From Escherichia coli (GTDB lineage Bacteria > Pseudomonadota > Gammaproteobacteria > Enterobacterales > Enterobacteriaceae), in the NCBI RefSeq assembly GCF_003018255.1, contig NZ_CP027440.1: a DNA stretch of 64,000 bases, one strand, 5' to 3'. A program made the position numbers and the translations under genes. The notes under the pieces are model-generated. The model had not been told where the DNA came from and searched no databases. It was given only the letters and a program-made list of their open reading frames with translations. Position 1 is the stretch's first letter, and every line of letters begins with the position of its first letter. Below are positions 4,981-54,005 of the stretch, piece by piece.

Positions 4981-5057
<77 letters not shown>

Positions 5058-5099
5058 AATTTGCACGGCAAATTTGAAGAGGTTTTAACTACATGTTAT

Positions 5100-5175
5100 G
5101 GGGCTATAGCTCAGCTGGGAGAGCGCCTGCTTTGCACGCAGGAGGTCTGCGGTTCGATCCCGCATAGCTCCACCA
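5100..5175 (+). tRNA. alaV: tRNA-Ala (anticodon TGC)
   Basis: GGGGCTATAGCTCAGCTGGGAGAGCGCCTGCTTTGCACGCAGGAGG...CTCCACCA in the spacer. Confidence 0.95.
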
Positions 5176-8518: not shown

Positions 8519-8595
8519 GGAGCGGTAGTTCAGTCGGTTAGAATACCTGCCTGTCACGCAGGGGGTCGCGGGTTCGAGTCCCGTCCGTTCCGCCA
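8519..8595 (+). tRNA. aspU: tRNA-Asp (anticodon GTC), distal tRNA of the rRNA operon
   Basis: GGAGCGGTAGTTCAGTCGGTTAGAATACCTGCCTGTCACGCAGGGGGTCGCGGGTTCGAGTCCCGTCCGTTCCGCCA. Confidence 0.95.
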
Positions 8596-16739: not shown

Positions 16740-16816
16740 GGAGCGGTAGTTCAGTCGGTTAGAATACCTGCCTGTCACGCAGGGGGTCGCGGGTTCGAGT
16801 CCCGTCCGTTCCGCCA
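16740..16816 (+). tRNA. aspV: tRNA-Asp (anticodon GTC); left boundary of the accessory island
   Basis: Sequence identical to the tRNA-Asp at 8519-8595. Confidence 0.95.
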
Positions 16817-48017: not shown

Positions 48018-49306
48018 AGGGAAAGATCACGCAACGCTGCTTTTTTGTACTAATTAATTCGCATTTTATGTTTAAAAATTGAGATATTCCTCATTACCTA
48101 AAGCTGTTTTTTATTGCTTATACATGATCAAATACTCCTTACATAATTAAGGAGAACAAAATGGAACTTAAAAAATTGATGGAACATATTTCTATTATCC
48201 CCGATTACAGACAAGCCTGGAAAGTGGAACATAAATTGTCGGATATTCTACTGTTGACTATTTGTGCCGTTATTTCTGGTGCAGAAGGCTGGGAAGATAT
48301 AGAGGATTTTGGGGAAACACATCTCGATTTTTTGAAGCAATATGGTGATTTTGAAAATGGTATTCCTGTTCACGATACCATTGCCAGAGTTGTATCCTGT
48401 ATCAGTCCTGCAAAATTTCACGAGTGCTTTATTAACTGGATGCGTGACTGCCATTCTTCAGATGATAAAGACGTTATTGCAATTGATGGAAAAACGCTCC
48501 GGCATTCTTATGACAAGAGTCGCCGCAGGGGAGCGATTCATGTCATTAGTGCGTTCTCAACAATGCACAGTCTGGTCATCGGACAGATCAGGACGGATGA
48601 GAAATCCAATGAGATCACAGCTATCCATGAACTTCTTAACATGCTGGATATTAAAGGAAAAATCATCACAACTGATGCGATGGGTTGCCAGAAAGATATC
48701 GCAGAGAAGATACAAAAACAGGGCGGTGATTATTTATTCGCTGTAAAAGGAAATCAGGGGCGGCTTAATAAAGCCTTTGAGGAAAAATTCCCACTGAAAG
48801 AATTAAATAATCCAGAGCATGACAGTTACGCAATTAGTGAAAAAAGTCACGGCAGAGAAGAAATCCGTCTTCACATTGTTTGCGATGTCCCTGATGAACT
48901 TATTGATTTCATGTTTGAATGGAAAGGTCTGAAGAAATTATGCGTGGCAGTCTCCTTTCGGTCAATAATAGCAGAACAAAAGAAAGAGCCCGAAATGACG
49001 GTCAGATATTATATCAGTTCTGCTGATTTAACCGCAGAGAAGTTCGCCACAGCAATCCGAAACCACTGACACGTGGAGAATAAGCTGCACTGGCGTCTGG
49101 ACGTGGTAATGAATGAAGACGACTGCAAAATAAGAAGAGGAAACGCCGCAGAATTATTTTCAGGGATACGGCACATCGCTATTAATATTTTAACGAATGA
49201 TAATGTATTCAAGGCAGGGTTAAGACGTAAGATGCGAAAAGCAGCCATGGACAGAAACTACCTGGCGTCAGTCCTTGCTGGGAGCGGGCTTTCGTAATCT
49301 TTCCCT
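48018..49306 (+). mobile_element. ISAs1-family insertion sequence (H-repeat type), copy 1, 1289 bp
   Basis: Terminal inverted repeats AGGGAAAGATCACG...CGTAATCTTTCCCT; same length and ends as copies 2 and 3; no flanking direct repeat. Confidence 0.75.
48161..49297 (+). pseudogene. ISAs1-family transposase (H-repeat-associated protein) interrupted by an in-frame TGA at 49067-49069
   Basis: ORFs 48161-49069 and 49073-49297 together match the intact 378-aa copies; RNH-stop-HVENK here versus RNHWHVENK in copies 2 and 3 (TGG to TGA). Confidence 0.7.
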
Positions 49307-49349
49307 GGCGTCAGTCCTTGCAAGGAGCGGGCTTTCGTAATCTTTCCCT
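49307..49349 (+). repeat. Partial tandem duplication (about 43 bp) of the IS right terminus
   Basis: cgtcagtccttgcaaggagcgggctttcgtaatctttccct repeats the last about 40 bp of the IS immediately after copy 1. Confidence 0.6.
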
Positions 49350-49769
49350 GGGCGGTATATCATCCAGGACTCGATTGGGCTGAAGGGGGGATGGAATCTG
49401 TACCAATATCCGCTGAATCCAGTGCAACACGTTGATCCATTAGGGCTTAGTACTATGATAATAGGTAACGGCCCCGTTCCTGATAATCCTTTTGGGCATG
49501 CTGCGGCGGCAAATCGATATGGATTAATGAGTTCGGGAACTGGGGATGAGATGGGAGCCTCTGTCTCTGATTATTTTAAAAAGATGCAACCCCGCAGAGA
49601 TACCTGGATTTGGATAATAGATACAACAGATGAAGAAGAACAATGTATGATGAATAAGGCAATAGACCTTAATAAAAAACTAAAAACTATTAACCTCGGG
49701 CCTCTTCCTGTTTTAAATAATTGTTTTAGCCGAACGAACATGATTTTTGAGGCGTGCGGGTTTAACAAC
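49350..49769 (+). pseudogene. Orphan rhs 3' fragment (core-end motif plus C-terminal toxin domain), lacking a 5' region and interrupted by IS copy 2
   Basis: In-frame translation [33 protein letters not shown] then toxin domain (ORF 49422-49805) running into the IS at 49770; homologous to the main rhs core end. Confidence 0.6.
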
Positions 49770-51058
49770 AGGGAAAGATCACGTAACGCTGCTTTTTTGT
49801 ACTAAATAATTCGCATTTTATGTTTAAAAATTGAGATATTCCTCATTACCTAAAGCTGTTTTTTATTGCTTATACATGATCAAATACTCCTTACATAATT
49901 AAGGAGAACAAAATGAAACTTAAAAAATTGATGGAACATATTTCTATTATCCCCGATTACAGACAAGCCTGGAAAGTGGAACATAAATTGTCGGATATTC
50001 TACTGTTGACTATTTGTGCCGTTATTTCTGGTGCAGAAGGCTGGGAAGATATAGAGGATTTTGGGGAAACACATCTCGATTTTTTAAAACAATATGGTGA
50101 TTTTGAAAATGGTATTCCTGTTCACGATACCATCGCCAGAGTTGTATCCTGTATCAGTCCTTCAAAATTTCACGAGTGCTTTATTAACTGGATGCGAGAT
50201 TGCCATACTTCAGATGATAAAGACGTTATTGCAATCGATGGAAAAACACTCCGGCATTCTTATGACAGGAGTCGCCGCAGGGGAGCGATTCATGTCATTA
50301 GTGCGTTCTCAACAATGCACAGTCTGGTCATCGGACAGATCAGGACGGATGAGAAATCTAATGAGATTACAGCTATCCCAGAACTTCTTAACATGCTGGA
50401 TATTAAAGGAAAAATCATCACAACTGATGCGATGGGTTGCCAGAAAGATATTGCAGAGAAGATACAAAAACAGGGCGGTGATTATTTATTCGCTGTAAAA
50501 GGAAATCAGGGGCGGCTTAATAAAGCCTTTGAGGAAAAATTCCCACTGAAAGAATTAAATAATCCAGAGCATGACAGTTACGCAATTAGTGAAAAAAGTC
50601 ACGGCAGAGAAGAAATCCGTCTTCACATTGTTTGCGATGTCCCTGATGAACTTATTGATTTCATGTTTGAATGGAAAGGTCTGAAGAAATTATGCGTGGC
50701 AGTCTCCTTTCGGTCAATAATAGCAGAACAAAAGAAAGAGCCCGAAATGACGGTCAGATATTATATCAGTTCTGCTGATTTAACCGCAGAGAAGTTCGCC
50801 ACAGCAATCCGAAACCACTGGCACGTGGAGAATAAGCTGCACTGGCGTCTGGACGTGGTAATGAATGAAGACGACTGCAAAATAAGAAGAGGAAACGCCG
50901 CAGAATTATTTTCAGGGATACGGCACATCGCTATTAATATTTTAACGAATGATAAGGTATTCAAGGCAGGGTTAAGACGTAAGATGCGAAAAGCAGCCAT
51001 GGACAGAAACTACCTGGCGTCAGTCCTTGCAGGGAGCGGGCTTTCGTAATCTTTCCCT
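49770..51058 (+). mobile_element. ISAs1-family insertion sequence (H-repeat type), copy 2, 1289 bp, flanked by a 12-bp direct repeat
   Basis: Same inverted repeats as copy 1; GGGTTTAACAAC present at 49758-49769 and 51059-51070. Confidence 0.8.
49913..51049 (+). CDS. ISAs1-family transposase (H-repeat-associated protein), intact
   Basis: 378-aa ORF ([25 protein letters not shown]...); about 98% identical to the copy 3 protein. Confidence 0.8.
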
Positions 51059-51196
51059 GGGTTTAACAACCCCTCTATGAATACAAATGCGCCTATAAGC
51101 CTACAAGTGCTCGGTGAGCTTTATGGATATCAAAGATATATTATGCCTAAAGGTCCTTTCACTGGATTCCCATTTGAATTTCAAGAGGTAAAGTAA
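51059..51196 (+). pseudogene. 3' tail of the orphan rhs C-terminal toxin gene displaced by the IS copy 2 insertion
   Basis: Continues the upstream frame exactly after one copy of the direct repeat: GFNNPSMNTNAPISLQVLGELYGYQRYIMPKGPFTGFPFEFQEVK-stop, with stop TAA abutting the next ATG. Confidence 0.55.
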
Positions 51197-51595
51197 ATGG
51201 AAATGCTTGGGAAGATATTAGTGATAATTATTTCCATGATAATTATATCTTGTGATTATTATAATGCTGGCATGGACTATCAAGATAATATAGCCCTCGA
51301 GCAAGTCGTAACATGGGATTCTGATAATATATTCACACCTAATATCTTTGAACATAATGGAAGATGTTTTATGAAGAAAAATGAAACATGGATGTTATTA
51401 AATGGAGATGCAACACCAAACATTAGAACAATGAGCAATAAGAAAATAGAATGCCTGGAGAAGAGTGAAGTAGAATGGGCTAGTAGGGTTTGCGACAGTA
51501 TCACAGACAAGGAAAGGGAAAATCTGAAGGCATTAATATGTAGCAAACCAGCTAAATCAGTTAATACAGGCAAAAGACCAGCGTTAGGATATTGA
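51197..51595 (+). CDS. Putative immunity protein for the orphan rhs C-terminal toxin
   Basis: 132-aa ORF starting at the toxin stop (TAAATG); hydrophobic N-terminus; AT-rich, typical of rhs immunity genes. Confidence 0.45.
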   Translation: MEMLGKILVIIISMIIISCDYYNAGMDYQDNIALEQVVTWDSDNIFTPNIFEHNGRCFMKKNETWMLLNGDATPNIRTMSNKKIECLEKSEVEWASRVCDSITDKERENLKALICSKPAKSVNTGKRPALGY

Positions 51596-51639
51596 AACCG
51601 GCACTGCACTCTATCACTATTACAATATTCTGAGTGACT

Positions 51640-51732
51640 AGAGCAACTGCTCCGCCATCCGGGCTAGCAGTATGACGACGAATCCGAACTGCACTACAAC
51701 TGGCACCGGTACTACAATCCGGGACAGGGACT
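51640..51732 (+). pseudogene. Degenerate rhs core-end remnant truncated by IS copy 3
   Basis: actgcactacaactggcaccggtactacaatccgggacaggg is about 75% identical to the main rhs core 3' region around 46916-46960 and stops at the IS left end. Confidence 0.4.
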
Positions 51733-53021
51733 AGGGAAAGATCACGCAACGCTGCTTTTTTGTACTAAATAATTCGCATTTTATGTTTAAAAATTGAGAT
51801 ATTCCTCATTACCTGAAGCTGTTTTTTATTGCTTATACATGATCAAATACTCCTTACATAATTAAGGAGAACAAAATGGAACTTAAAAAATTGATGGAGC
51901 ATATTTCTATTATCCCCGATTACAGACAAGCCTGGAAAGTGGAACATAAATTGTCGGATATTCTACTGTTGACTATTTGTGCCGTTATTTCTGGTGCAGA
52001 AGGCTGGGAAGATATAGAGGATTTTGGGGAAACACATCTCGATTTTTTGAAGCAATATGGTGATTTTGAAAATGGTATTCCTGTTCACGATACCATTGCC
52101 AGAGTTGTATCCTGTATCAGTCCTGCAAAATTTCACGAGTGCTTTATTAACTGGATGCGTGACTGCCATTCTTCAGATGATAAAGACGTTATTGCAATTG
52201 ATGGAAAAACGCTCCGGCATTCTTATGACAAGAGTCGCCGCAGGGGAGCGATTCATGTCATTAGTGCGTTCTCAACAATGCACAGTCTGGTCATCGGACA
52301 GATCAGGACGGATGAGAAATCCAATGAGATCACAGCTATCCATGAACTTCTTAACATGTTGGATATTAAAGGAAAAATTATCACAACTGATGCGATGGGT
52401 TGCCAGAAAGATATCGCAGAGAAGATACAAAAACAGGGCGGTGATTATTTATTCGCTGTAAAAGGAAATCAGGGGCGGCTTAATAAAGCCTTTGAGGAAA
52501 AATTCCCACTGAAAGAATTAAATAATCCAGAGCATGACAGTTACGCAATTAGTGAAAAGAGTCACGGCAGAGAAGAAATCCGTCTTCACATTGTTTGCGA
52601 TGTCCCTGATGAACTTATTGATTTCATGTTTGAATGGAAAGGTCTGAAGAAATTATGCGTGGCAGTCTCCTTTCGGTCAATAATAGCAGAACAAAAGAAA
52701 GAGCCAGAAATGACGGTCAGATATTATATCAGTTCTGCTGATTTAACCGCAGAGAAGTTCGCCACAGCAATCCGAAACCACTGGCACGTGGAGAATAAGC
52801 TGCACTGGCGTCTGGACGTGGTAATGAATGAAGACGACTGCAAAATAAGAAGAGGAAATGCAGCAGAATTATTTTCAGGGATACGGCACATCGCTATTAA
52901 TATTTTAACGAATGATAATGTATTCAAGGCAGGGTTAAGACGTAAGATGCGAAAAGCAGCCATGGACAGAAACTACCTGGCGTCAGTCCTTGCTGGGAGC
53001 GGGCTTTCGTAATCTTTCCCT
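51733..53021 (+). mobile_element. ISAs1-family insertion sequence (H-repeat type), copy 3, 1289 bp
   Basis: Same inverted repeats; followed by a partial (about 27 bp) duplicate of the right terminus; no flanking direct repeat. Confidence 0.75.
51876..53012 (+). CDS. ISAs1-family transposase (H-repeat-associated protein), intact
   Basis: 378-aa ORF, near-identical to copy 1 but without the premature stop. Confidence 0.8.
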
Positions 53022-53081
53022 GGGGGAGCGGGCTTTCGTAGTCTTACCCTGACTCTCCCCAGCCCTAAACACAACCCCCAC

Positions 53082-53852
53082 TCACCACAACCTAAACTCA
53101 TCCGCATCCCGCCATGCCGGAAACTTTTCTCTATATTCCCGCAATGCCATCATCGACAGCTCCGCATCAATGCGCGTTGCCTGATGCGCGTCGGCAGTAG
53201 CGATAATCTCGCCTTGCGGATTAATCACCCGGCTGTCACCGCGATAATGGCAGCCGTTGCCATCGCTGCCGACGCGATTGCATCCCGCCACATACGCTTG
53301 ATTCTCAATCGCGCGGGCTGTCAGCAATGCCTGCCAGTGCAGAGAGCGCGGAGCAGGCCAGTTGGCGACGTACAGGGCGAGGTCATAATCGTTGAGATTG
53401 CGCGACCACACCGGAAAACGTAAGTCGTAGCACACCAGCGGCAAAATACGCCAGCCGCGCCATTCCACAATCACTCGCTCATTGCCCGCTTTATAATGCA
53501 GATGCTCATCTGCCATGCGGAACAGATGACGCTTATCATAAAAATGTACCGTGCCGCCCGGCTCAACCAGCAAAAAGCGGTTAACCGAACCAGACTCCGT
53601 TTGTAATGCAACACTGCCTGCAATCAGCGCATTGCACTGCTGCGCTTTAGCGGTCATCCAGTTCACTACGTCATCTTGTGCTAGCGACGAAGCTGCCGCT
53701 TCCATGGCAAAGCCGCTGGTAAACATCTCCGGTAGAACGATCACATCGCGCCCGGTAATACCTTCCAGTTGACGATCAAAATGGCGCAGGTTGGCAGGAC
53801 CATCCATCCACACCAGTGGTTGCTGCAAAAGCGTAATCTTCAAACCAGGCAC
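53082..53852 (-). CDS. yafV: Nitrilase-superfamily amidase (omega-amidase, YafV type)
   Basis: ORF 53082-53861 trimmed to GTG 53852 with AAGGAG RBS; carbon-nitrogen hydrolase motifs (VLPEMF, CYDLRFP). Confidence 0.85.
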   Translation of the reverse strand: MPGLKITLLQQPLVWMDGPANLRHFDRQLEGITGRDVIVLPEMFTSGFAMEAAASSLAQDDVVNWMTAKAQQCNALIAGSVALQTESGSVNRFLLVEPGGTVHFYDKRHLFRMADEHLHYKAGNERVIVEWRGWRILPLVCYDLRFPVWSRNLNDYDLALYVANWPAPRSLHWQALLTARAIENQAYVAGCNRVGSDGNGCHYRGDSRVINPQGEIIATADAHQATRIDAELSMMALREYREKFPAWRDADEFRLW

Positions 53853-54005
53853 GGTGTACAACTCCTTTATGCGAAGGGTTTTATAACTCTAACACCTTAT
53901 CAGGCAGTTGCCTTAGCGCAGAATAAATTGATAACAAATGCTGATATTGGAAATATCTGATTTGCAAATTATCGTGTTATCGCCAGGCTTTAGGGAGTTA
54001 ATCAC

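Follow-up and report, generated by a model that had tools for sequence, protein, structure and literature searches.

How did three direct copies of one insertion sequence come to alternate with pieces of rhs genes, and did recombination between these copies cut a single rhs fragment in two? The DNA analysed here (the window, 64,000 nucleotides of Escherichia coli sequence) contains, between a vgrG-rhs gene and yafV, three direct copies of an ISAs1-family element (ISEc1/H-rpt, 'H-repeat'), which are 97-99% identical to each other. The original prediction, made from the sequence alone, considered the rhs pieces next to copies 3 and 1 as the complementary halves of one fragment. The locus is the 3' tail of an E. 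coli T6SS vgrG-rhs element, situated between the aspV-linked T6SS cluster and yafV, and its contents are an Rhs toxin that looks active (CT-A) and the corresponding immunity gene, a displaced, dead orphan tip (CT-B) whose immunity gene is intact, and the three ISEc1 copies (Table 1). Taken as a whole, the reading and the history of the locus presented below are in our opinion probably correct.

Table 1. Features of the vgrG-rhs locus in the window (positions count from the first nucleotide of the window).
Feature	Position	Strand	Basis or remark
vgrG (T6SS spike), 702 aa	41104..43212	+	TIGR03361 630 bits
full-length rhs, 1402 aa, core and tip CT-A	43279..47487	+	NF041261 RHS_core 2723 bits, cut-off 2000; translation
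dsORF-e4, presumed CT-A immunity gene, 131 aa	47499..47894	+	PGAP name 'RHS element protein dsORF-e4'; lipoprotein-like N-terminus
IS1 transposase remnant	47917..48015	-	PGAP annotation at equivalent positions in L001, L003, L009
ISEc1 copy 1, 1291 bp	48017..49307	+	transposase frame 48161-49297; without target duplication
solo ISAs1 right end, 43 nt	49308..49350	+	2 differences from the end of copy 1
displaced orphan: last 33 rhs core codons and N-terminal part of CT-B	49350..49768	+	RHS_core positions 1229-1261
ISEc1 copy 2	49769..51059	+	transposase 49913-51049, intact; inserted in CT-B
C-terminal remainder of CT-B	51060..51196	+	stop codon 51194-51196
immB, presumed CT-B immunity gene, 132 aa, intact	51197..51595	+	lipoprotein-like N-terminus
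decayed rhs core-end relic (predicted '5' half')	51658..51731	+	..PG*QYDDESELHYNWHRYYNPGQG
ISEc1 copy 3	51732..53022	+	transposase 51876-53012, intact; without target duplication
degenerate ISAs1 right-end scar, 29 nt	53023..53051	+	abuts the yafV side
yafV, first conserved chromosomal gene on the right	53082..53861	-	

Both the NF041261 profile and the translation give the main rhs gene an RHS core with YD repeats and a DPxGL motif followed by a variable tip, and the linkage to T6SS is seen from VgrG itself and from Hcp, tssM and other genes annotated in colinear genomes. The dsORF-e4 product is identical to that annotated in L001, and at the RhsE locus, too, this gene comes after rhs. Downstream of the full-length rhs lies a 5'-truncated core with a different tip (49350-51196, minus copy 2), followed by immB. 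The orphan core is 80% identical over 71 nt to the main core end (46954-47024), its translation also ends in a DPxGL-type motif before CT-B, and the CT-B reading frame is restored once copy 2 and one copy of its target duplication are removed. CT-B is carried by a full-length rhs in strain GF43 and about 150 other genomes (99.4-99.8% identity), and the immB product is identical to WP_000425544.1 of GF43, encoded there directly after the CT-B-bearing rhs. Profile searches gave no Pfam match for CT-B and no NCBIfam match beyond the Rhs core for CT-B, dsORF-e4 and immB; the toxin and immunity roles of these three are putative, being assigned from position. CT-A and its immunity gene probably form a working pair, two separate changes, the truncation that leaves 33 core codons and the entry of copy 2, would each have disarmed CT-B, and immB may persist as stand-alone immunity.

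The three predicted ISEc1 copies are present, each of them 1291 bp long and not 1289 bp. Elements of the ISAs1 family (ISfinder) have a single ORF, a length of about 1.2-1.5 kb and imperfect terminal inverted repeats starting with CAGGG. The copies have such ends, CAGGGAAAGATCACG... and ...CGTAATCTTTCCCTG (CAGGG...CCCTG, 31-nt arms 77% complementary), except that the first base of copy 3 is T and not C (TAGGG). The transposase matches the full NF033564 model transpos_ISAs1 (positions 1-314, 416 bits, cut-off 70) as well as PF13808 and PF01609, and equivalent copies are named 'ISAs1-like element ISEc1 family transposase' by PGAP. Over 1291 nt the identity is 95.8% to yhhI (H-rptB) and 95.9% to ydcC of K-12. 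As predicted, copy 1 has TGA at 49067-49069 in the transposase frame, TGG being found in copies 2 and 3, which each encode an intact protein of 378 aa. Copies 1 and 3 differ at 11 positions, copies 1 and 2 at 21, and copies 2 and 3 at 28. Over positions 1-601 copy 1 is the same as copy 1 of strain DETEC-S792, and beyond them 14 sites differ. The copies are recombinant mosaics. A donor of copy 2 was not found, the best match outside the site shared with the JNE strains being 98.8% identical.

Repeats of 1.3 kb are hard for short reads, and the 43-nt extra end beside copy 1 is unique to the window, so that a collapsed or mis-ordered repeat could be suspected. However, the copies differ at the 11-28 diagnostic sites given above, and each has unique flanks that are colinear with those of relatives. 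Moreover, the order of the three copies, the stop in copy 1 and the insertion site of copy 2 all recur in two complete, independent assemblies, JNE23-011 and JNE112863, which makes misassembly unlikely; we consider an artefact exceedingly improbable. The exact layout is already present and annotated in public complete genomes.

Copy 2 is bounded by a 10-bp target duplication, GGTTTAACAA (49759-49768 and 51060-51069), and its target site is empty and uninterrupted in GF43 (L002) and DETEC-S792 (L009). Copy 2 arrived in CT-B by genuine transposition. The duplication and the empty site in so close a relative (99.9% identity) are clean evidence of ISEc1 transposition, whereas the H-rpt literature consulted describes transposition as unobserved (PMC3032704).

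For copies 1 and 3, no pairing of flanks yielded a target duplication, in agreement with the original prediction. The left flank of copy 1 is CGTTTGATTC and its right flank GCGTCAGTCC, or GGCGGTATAT past the 43-nt solo end; copy 3 is flanked by GGACAGGGAC on the left and GGGGAGCGGG on the right. The solo end was found neither in JNE23-011 nor in any of the 5426 complete genomes used for junction counts, and the scar on the yafV side occurs at differing lengths in L001, L002, L003 and L009. Both these ends and the IS1 remnant to the left of copy 1 had been overlooked in the original prediction. Solo IS ends adjoin complete copies in several independent loci, and the DNA flanking precise IS ends becomes progressively shorter across related genomes. 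The right end of the IS is joined to the 3' fragment of the rhs core at 0, 7, about 70, about 150 or 449 nt upstream of the G|RY junction of the window. Mosaic copies, missing duplications, eroded flanks and solo ends support IS-mediated rearrangement in general.

Direct IS copies bracketing a toxin and its immunity gene also resemble a composite transposon, in which copies 1 and 3 would have moved the CT-B/immB segment as a unit into this site. But the outer flanks are unrelated and show no duplication (CGTTTGATTC on the left versus GGGGAGCGGG or ACTCTCCCCA on the right), and the right-hand IS with its scar at yafV is older than the arrangement, since both are present in GF43 and 2014C-3075. 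This explanation is hardly credible.

The specific claim of the original prediction was that one ISEc1 copy entered one rhs core-end fragment at ...NPGQ|GRY... and that IS-IS recombination later parted the halves. The flanks do read as it described (...HYNWHRYYNPGQG ahead of copy 3, the core end ...DPLGL after copy 1), the two protein ends abut almost exactly (RYYNPGQG and GRYIIQD), and neither copy has a target duplication. Nevertheless, the two pieces are different fragments. Copy 3 is preceded by an old, decayed core-end relic, the 5' piece, which has an in-frame TAG and about 75% identity to the main core. The 3' piece, after copy 1, is instead the start of the displaced tip CT-B and agrees at 99.8% (99.76%) with the functional, full-length rhs of GF43 at its 3' end. 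At the RhsE locus of strain 7/2 the relic runs 25 nt further (...GQGRYITQ..G|IS), and the additional bases match the start of the 3' piece of the window at 23 of 30 positions with one indel; because of this extension the two pieces overlap ancestrally, yet have different sequences. In 158 complete genomes the relic adjoins an ISAs1 left end; GF43 is one of them, and its CT-B has remained part of the full-length rhs. A further 449 nt of core precede the 3' piece in DETEC-S792, which makes the G|RY break a secondary deletion beside the right end of the IS. No 10-bp duplication is common to the two pieces. Given these data, a split fragment is highly improbable. Comparison with related genomes, proposed along with the original claim, did reveal alternative arrangements (GF43, DETEC-S792), and together with strain 7/2 these arrangements contradict the split halves. 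One observation counts against the history that we prefer: the two rhs break points lie only about 3 nt apart on the core coordinate. We attribute this to chance, possibly aided by a CAGGG motif there that resembles an IS terminus; tidy complementarity at the protein level can come from two independent deletions.

The closest relative, DETEC-S792 (99.9% backbone identity), is 99.95% identical to the window right of copy 2; apart from this, the two differ in the 449-nt stretch, in copy 2 and in the additional solo end of 43 nt. Identity to GF43 is 99.76% over CT-B and 98.1% over the stretch reaching from the end of CT-B across immB and the relic to the IS end. Both toxin-immunity cassettes occur at both vgrG-rhs loci (RhsE/pptA and yafV), and the segment common to the two loci extends from the vgrG ribosome-binding site to the IS, and in loci with a complete copy it includes the right end of that copy. 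These observations suggest that the IS acts as a boundary of cassette exchange.

The history that we prefer comprises five steps. (a) Comparison shows an older layout, that of GF43, which consists of rhs-CT-B, immB, the decayed relic, an IS, the IS scar and yafV. (b) A RhsE-typical block (CT-A, dsORF-e4, the IS1 remnant and an IS) would have been copied in, with the rhs core as homology on the left and an ISEc1 copy as the boundary on the right; the core fragment, CT-B and immB would thereby have been pushed downstream, giving the state kept in DETEC-S792. (c) The 449 nt of orphan core beside the right end of copy 1 were lost, giving the state seen in the window; the leftover solo end and the mosaic copy 1 would fit insertion of an IS into or next to an IS, followed by recombination or adjacent deletion. 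(d) Copy 2 entered CT-B, leaving its 10-bp duplication. (e) The tryptophan codon of copy 1 changed to a stop, and gene conversion homogenised stretches of the copies. Parsimony over four or five genomes, and no dated tree, underlies the order of events. Since copy 1 departs from DETEC-S792 in its right part and the solo end matches neither, one has to assume at least one IS copy that is not seen, or an additional gene conversion. The join between the IS right end and the core in DETEC-S792 is unique among the 5426 genomes, so that the making of this join in step (b) is not visible.

As a variant of step (b), a circle consisting of an IS, the core fragment, CT-B, immB and the relic could have been excised from a GF43-like locus by intramolecular transposition or IS-IS recombination and then integrated by homology into the single IS of a 2014C-3075-like locus (CT-A, dsORF-e4, IS1 remnant, IS, yafV). 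Circular intermediates were proposed for rhs tip displacement (Jackson et al. 2009, PMC2935791), and such a translocatable unit would produce the exact order of DETEC-S792, in which both new joints would have precise IS ends and lack duplications. However, a double crossover with core and IS as arms explains the same data, and neither a circle junction nor a second instance of the unique DETEC-S792 joint was observed. Both in DETEC-S792 and in the window, the orphan is bounded by a precise IS right end, which several routes could have produced, the single-crossover circle of Jackson et al. being among those considered. Classical adjacent deletions and translocatable units are features of IS1 and IS26. 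The window resembles them in that neighbouring DNA is progressively lost while IS ends stay precise, cargo lies between direct copies, and no duplications are found at the outer ones; it differs in that for ISAs1 no circle or cointegrate was observed here. To our knowledge no ISAs1 element has a characterised transposition chemistry, which also counts against the circular route, and we regard this variant as unlikely.

Several known systems are close to this locus. In K-12 the H-rpt/ISEc1 copies (yhhI of RhsB, yncI and ydcC of RhsE, ybfQ-ybfL-ybfD of RhsC) are the same 1291-bp element with the same ends (95.6-95.9% identity), and they likewise lie downstream of rhs tips in the same orientation and have no target duplications. 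RhsC also has three direct copies, but these are truncated and abut head to tail without cargo, whereas all three copies in the window are full length and have toxin and immunity pieces between them. As in Rhs C-terminal displacement (Jackson et al. 2009, PMC2935791; Koskiniemi et al. 2014), a core fragment with an alternative tip and an immunity gene lies silent downstream of a full-length gene, and the tip is found on full-length rhs in other strains; in contrast to those systems, the orphan is bounded upstream by a precise IS end and not by core homology, its remaining 33 core codons share the 71-nt match with the main core, and the tip is split by an IS. With so little core left and a split tip, re-activation of CT-B by recombination with the main gene looks impossible here. 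In Salmonella, an orphan tip has reportedly been re-activated in this way.

The layout is real but ordinary for such a locus and of a known kind, and it has little import beyond curation: H-repeats in Rhs elements, triple copies included, have been described since the 1990s, and orphan rhs tips with their displacement are textbook matter for polymorphic toxins. As a tentative generalisation, which we consider possible and by no means probable, ISEc1/H-rpt might be more than a passenger and give the vgrG-rhs elements of E. coli a permanent recombination arm on their right-hand side. The element would still be transposing and landing in or beside its own copies (solo-end 'stutters'), would together with the rhs core allow whole toxin-immunity cassettes to be swapped or stacked between the RhsE (pptA) and T6SS (yafV) loci, and would disarm displaced tips while sparing immunity genes.

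The left two-thirds of the locus (CT-A, dsORF-e4, the IS1 remnant and an IS) match the RhsE-type element of O157:H7 and many other strains (vgrG, rhs, dsORF-e4, IS1 remnant, H-rpt, pptA), the differences being that the module is at the yafV locus and has lost a spacer of about 240 nt. In the RhsE loci L011 and L012 this spacer separates the IS1 remnant from the ISAs1 copy; 27 nt of it are kept in 2014C-3075 and none in the window. In 1345 of the 5426 genomes an IS1 remnant has an ISAs1 left end close by.

The window follows the E. coli chromosome from an rRNA operon through a T6SS cluster and hcp-vgrG-rhs to yafV-ivy-fadE; the second tRNA-Asp gene precedes the start of the T6SS island, as is typical of tRNA-linked island boundaries. 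The element on the yafV side is presumably the "RhsG" of Hill's laboratory. The name vgrG derives from "RhsG".

A repeat finder and a three-way alignment of the window recovered the three predicted direct copies of an ISAs1-family element, which are 97-99% identical (11, 21 and 28 differing positions between copies) and bear the same termini as the K-12 H-rpt copies. The 378-aa product scores 416 bits with the ISAs1 transposase model (cut-off 70) and also matches Pfam PF13808 and PF01609. Its 95.8% identity to K-12 H-rptB/yhhI identifies the element as ISEc1, the classical "H-repeat". The predicted nonsense change in copy 1 is present as well: the codon at 49067-49069 is TGA, while copies 2 and 3 have TGG. 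Several full-length copies begin with TAGGG in place of CAGGG, so that the left end varies at its first base although these copies are intact in other respects.

Coordinates of the IS copies, IS ends and tRNA genes (window unless a locus is named; L002, GF43; L003, 2014C-3075; L011 and L012, RhsE loci)
Feature	Position	Length	Remark
tRNA-Ile and tRNA-Ala within the rRNA operon; two tRNA-Asp genes	4981-5175, 8519-8595, 16740-16816		
Copy 1	48017-49307	1291 bp	CAGGG...CCCTG termini
Solo ISAs1 right end	49308-49350	43 nt	directly 3' of copy 1; overlooked in the original prediction
Copy 2	49769-51059	1291 bp	CAGGG...CCCTG termini
Copy 3	51732-53022	1291 bp	TAGGG...CCCTG termini
Degenerate ISAs1 right-end scar	53023-53051	29 nt	directly 3' of copy 3; overlooked in the original prediction
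Equivalents of the yafV-side scar	L002 9337-9470; L003 9344-9361		lengths vary
Tandem solo left ends, RhsE locus	L011 7107-7136; L012 7107-7119		
Full-length copies starting with TAGGG	window 51732; L010 7786; L011 7329; L012 7316		

Copy 2 interrupts CT-B, the displaced orphan toxin tip, and its excision in silico restores a single open frame. Because the 10-bp duplication GGTTTAACAA lies on both sides of copy 2 and the empty site is intact in strains GF43 and DETEC-S792, we regard this copy as a genuine transposition. A search for its donor gave, apart from the JNE copies at that site, no match above 98.8%. Compared with copy 2 of JNE23-011 (L001 9727-11017), the window copy has 11 differences, every one at IS positions 829-1024. 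Its agreement with copies 1 and 3 in this stretch points to local gene conversion among the IS copies. Over positions 1-601 copy 1 is identical to its DETEC-S792 counterpart, and beyond them the two show 14 differences; both patterns are interpreted as conversion or recombination tracts.

The rhs core ends preceding copy 3 (5' piece) and following copy 1 (3' piece) had been read as complementary halves of one fragment rearranged by IS copies. Remodelling by the IS did occur, but the pieces are not reciprocal halves: they derive from separate rhs fragments that differ greatly in age. The 5' piece (51658-51731), found next to the left end of an ISAs1 copy in 158 genomes, shares about 75% identity with the main core and is interrupted by an in-frame TAG; the 3' piece matches the functional rhs end of GF43 at 99.8%. 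The two nearly abut, with an overlap of about 3 nt on the core coordinate; this does not mark a single split insertion, and the fragments have no 10-bp duplication in common. At the RhsE locus (the paralogous vgrG-rhs element at pptA) of strain 7/2 the same relic extends 25 nt further (...GQGRYITQ..G/IS), the extension agreeing with the beginning of the 3' piece in the window at just 23/30 positions, with one indel. Given this longer relic, the junction of the 5' piece in the window is a secondary 25-nt loss beside the IS left end. The orphan of DETEC-S792 retains 449 nt of additional rhs core immediately behind copy 1's right end, and the start of the 3' piece at G/RY is the result of a 449-nt loss relative to that strain.

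As predicted, copies 1 and 3 lack flanking direct repeats: no target duplication of 8-12 bp was found in any pairing of their flanks, solo ends allowed for. Across the compared genomes, ever shorter flanks adjoin precise IS ends: the left flank of copy 1 measures 240, 27 or 0 nt, its right flank 449 or 0 nt, and the left flank of copy 3 25 or 0 nt. An IS1 remnant, also missed in the original prediction, abuts copy 1 on the left. Independent loci repeatedly show solo IS ends next to complete copies; together with the shortened flanks and the conversion tracts, they speak for rearrangement driven by the IS copies. The 43-nt solo end differs from the terminus of copy 1 at 2 positions and is unique among 5426 complete E. 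coli genomes and missing from the JNE genomes, which are the same in other respects; an ISEc1 copy with an end reading ...TTGCAAGGAGC... would point to its lost partner. The degenerate scar adjacent to yafV is fixed in all layouts with differing lengths, and in GF43 a longer scar is located 78 nt past the intact IS copy, which implies that H-repeats occupied this site repeatedly. At the RhsE locus, one or two tandem solo left ends of 13-17 nt, CAGGGAAAGATCA, lie about 200 nt upstream of a complete ydcC-type copy and mirror the window's solo right ends.

A fixed insertion site in the rhs core end was rejected, since IS right ends meet the core at varied offsets in five loci (0, 7, ~70, ~150 and 449 nt) and none of the K-12 copies is located in a core end. 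One could imagine that the IS is drawn to the CAGGG motif of the core Q-G codons, or that this motif imitates the IS end, as several flanks contain CAGGG; however, these cases are few and related, and the K-12 copies and copy 2 lack the motif.

The three-copy layout including the copy 1 stop codon was found only in JNE23-011 and JNE112863 among the complete genomes. The nearest backbone relative, DETEC-S792 (99.9% identity; 99.95% right of copy 2), has copies 1 and 3 and no copy 2. In GF43 a full-length rhs with CT-B is followed by its presumed immunity gene immB (protein identical to the window's), the same decayed relic, one IS and yafV, and in 2014C-3075 the order is CT-A (the tip of the window's full-length rhs), dsORF-e4, an IS1 remnant, 27 nt, one IS and yafV. 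The RhsE loci of O157:H7 RM8376 and PV0838, the two genomes read, have CT-A, dsORF-e4, an IS1 remnant, about 240 nt and an IS; an ISAs1 left end near an IS1 remnant occurs in 1345 genomes, and the CT-B cassette is found at the RhsE locus too. DNA common to the yafV and RhsE loci starts at the vgrG ribosome-binding site and reaches the IS right end in the locus pair with complete copies; in the other pair it stops at IS position 696, the truncation point of the strain 7/2 copy. An inverted-repeat-like sequence, a sign of one-ended mobilisation, was sought at the left boundary of this paralogous vgrG-to-IS segment and was not found.

At the sequence level, the compared genomes show GF43-like, DETEC-S792-like and window/JNE-like states, the insertion of copy 2 and the copy 1 stop codon. 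An RhsE-type CT-A block, delimited by rhs core and an ISEc1 copy, was probably copied into a CT-B locus, either by a double crossover following IS insertion in the core or by integration of an IS-bearing circle. The 449 nt would have been lost later through a further IS insertion, after which recombination or a deletion beside the IS left behind the 43-nt end, a repeat that the JNE strains would then have lost. Differences from JNE23-011 and DETEC-S792 amount to 96 and 113 in window 40234-49307 (~9.1 kb, 98.8-98.9% identity), and the first 25 kb are 99.8-99.9% identical. Nearly all differences from these near-isogenic strains are in the rhs core (43500-47000), a clustering that hints at gene conversion from rhs paralogues elsewhere.

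H-repeats have long been known in K-12 Rhs elements, RhsC having three copies. Transposition of the H-repeat had not been observed as of a 2011 genome paper (PMC3032704). Jackson et al. 2009 proposed orphan tips and their displacement by recombination involving circular intermediates; the IS does not appear in their account (PMC2935791). A literature search on ISAs1, Rhs and orphan tips jointly returned nothing specific. The whole feature is of a known kind, and nothing in it goes beyond the H-repeat and orphan-tip frames. In E. coli 042 (L013 4895-10985), three ISAs1 copies or remnants surround non-Rhs cargo at the same yafV boundary, and one copy carries a group II intron (ltrA) that interrupts it.

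We infer that CT-A and dsORF-e4, its presumed immunity gene, form the working pair and that CT-B is dead, because no more than 33 codons of core remain on the orphan (71 nt, 80% identical to the main core) and copy 2 splits it. The intact immB may protect against CT-B-armed strains. CT-B has no Pfam match, and CT-B, immA (dsORF-e4) and immB have no NCBIfam match except to the Rhs core. Both presumed immunity proteins have lipoprotein-like starts (47499-47560, ..LLCGC..; 51197-51270, ..IIISC..). CT-A (~47050-47487) is glycine-rich (GGHAGLGV...GIGGGINA...VGGGVGGH), which recalls membrane-active glycine-zipper toxins.
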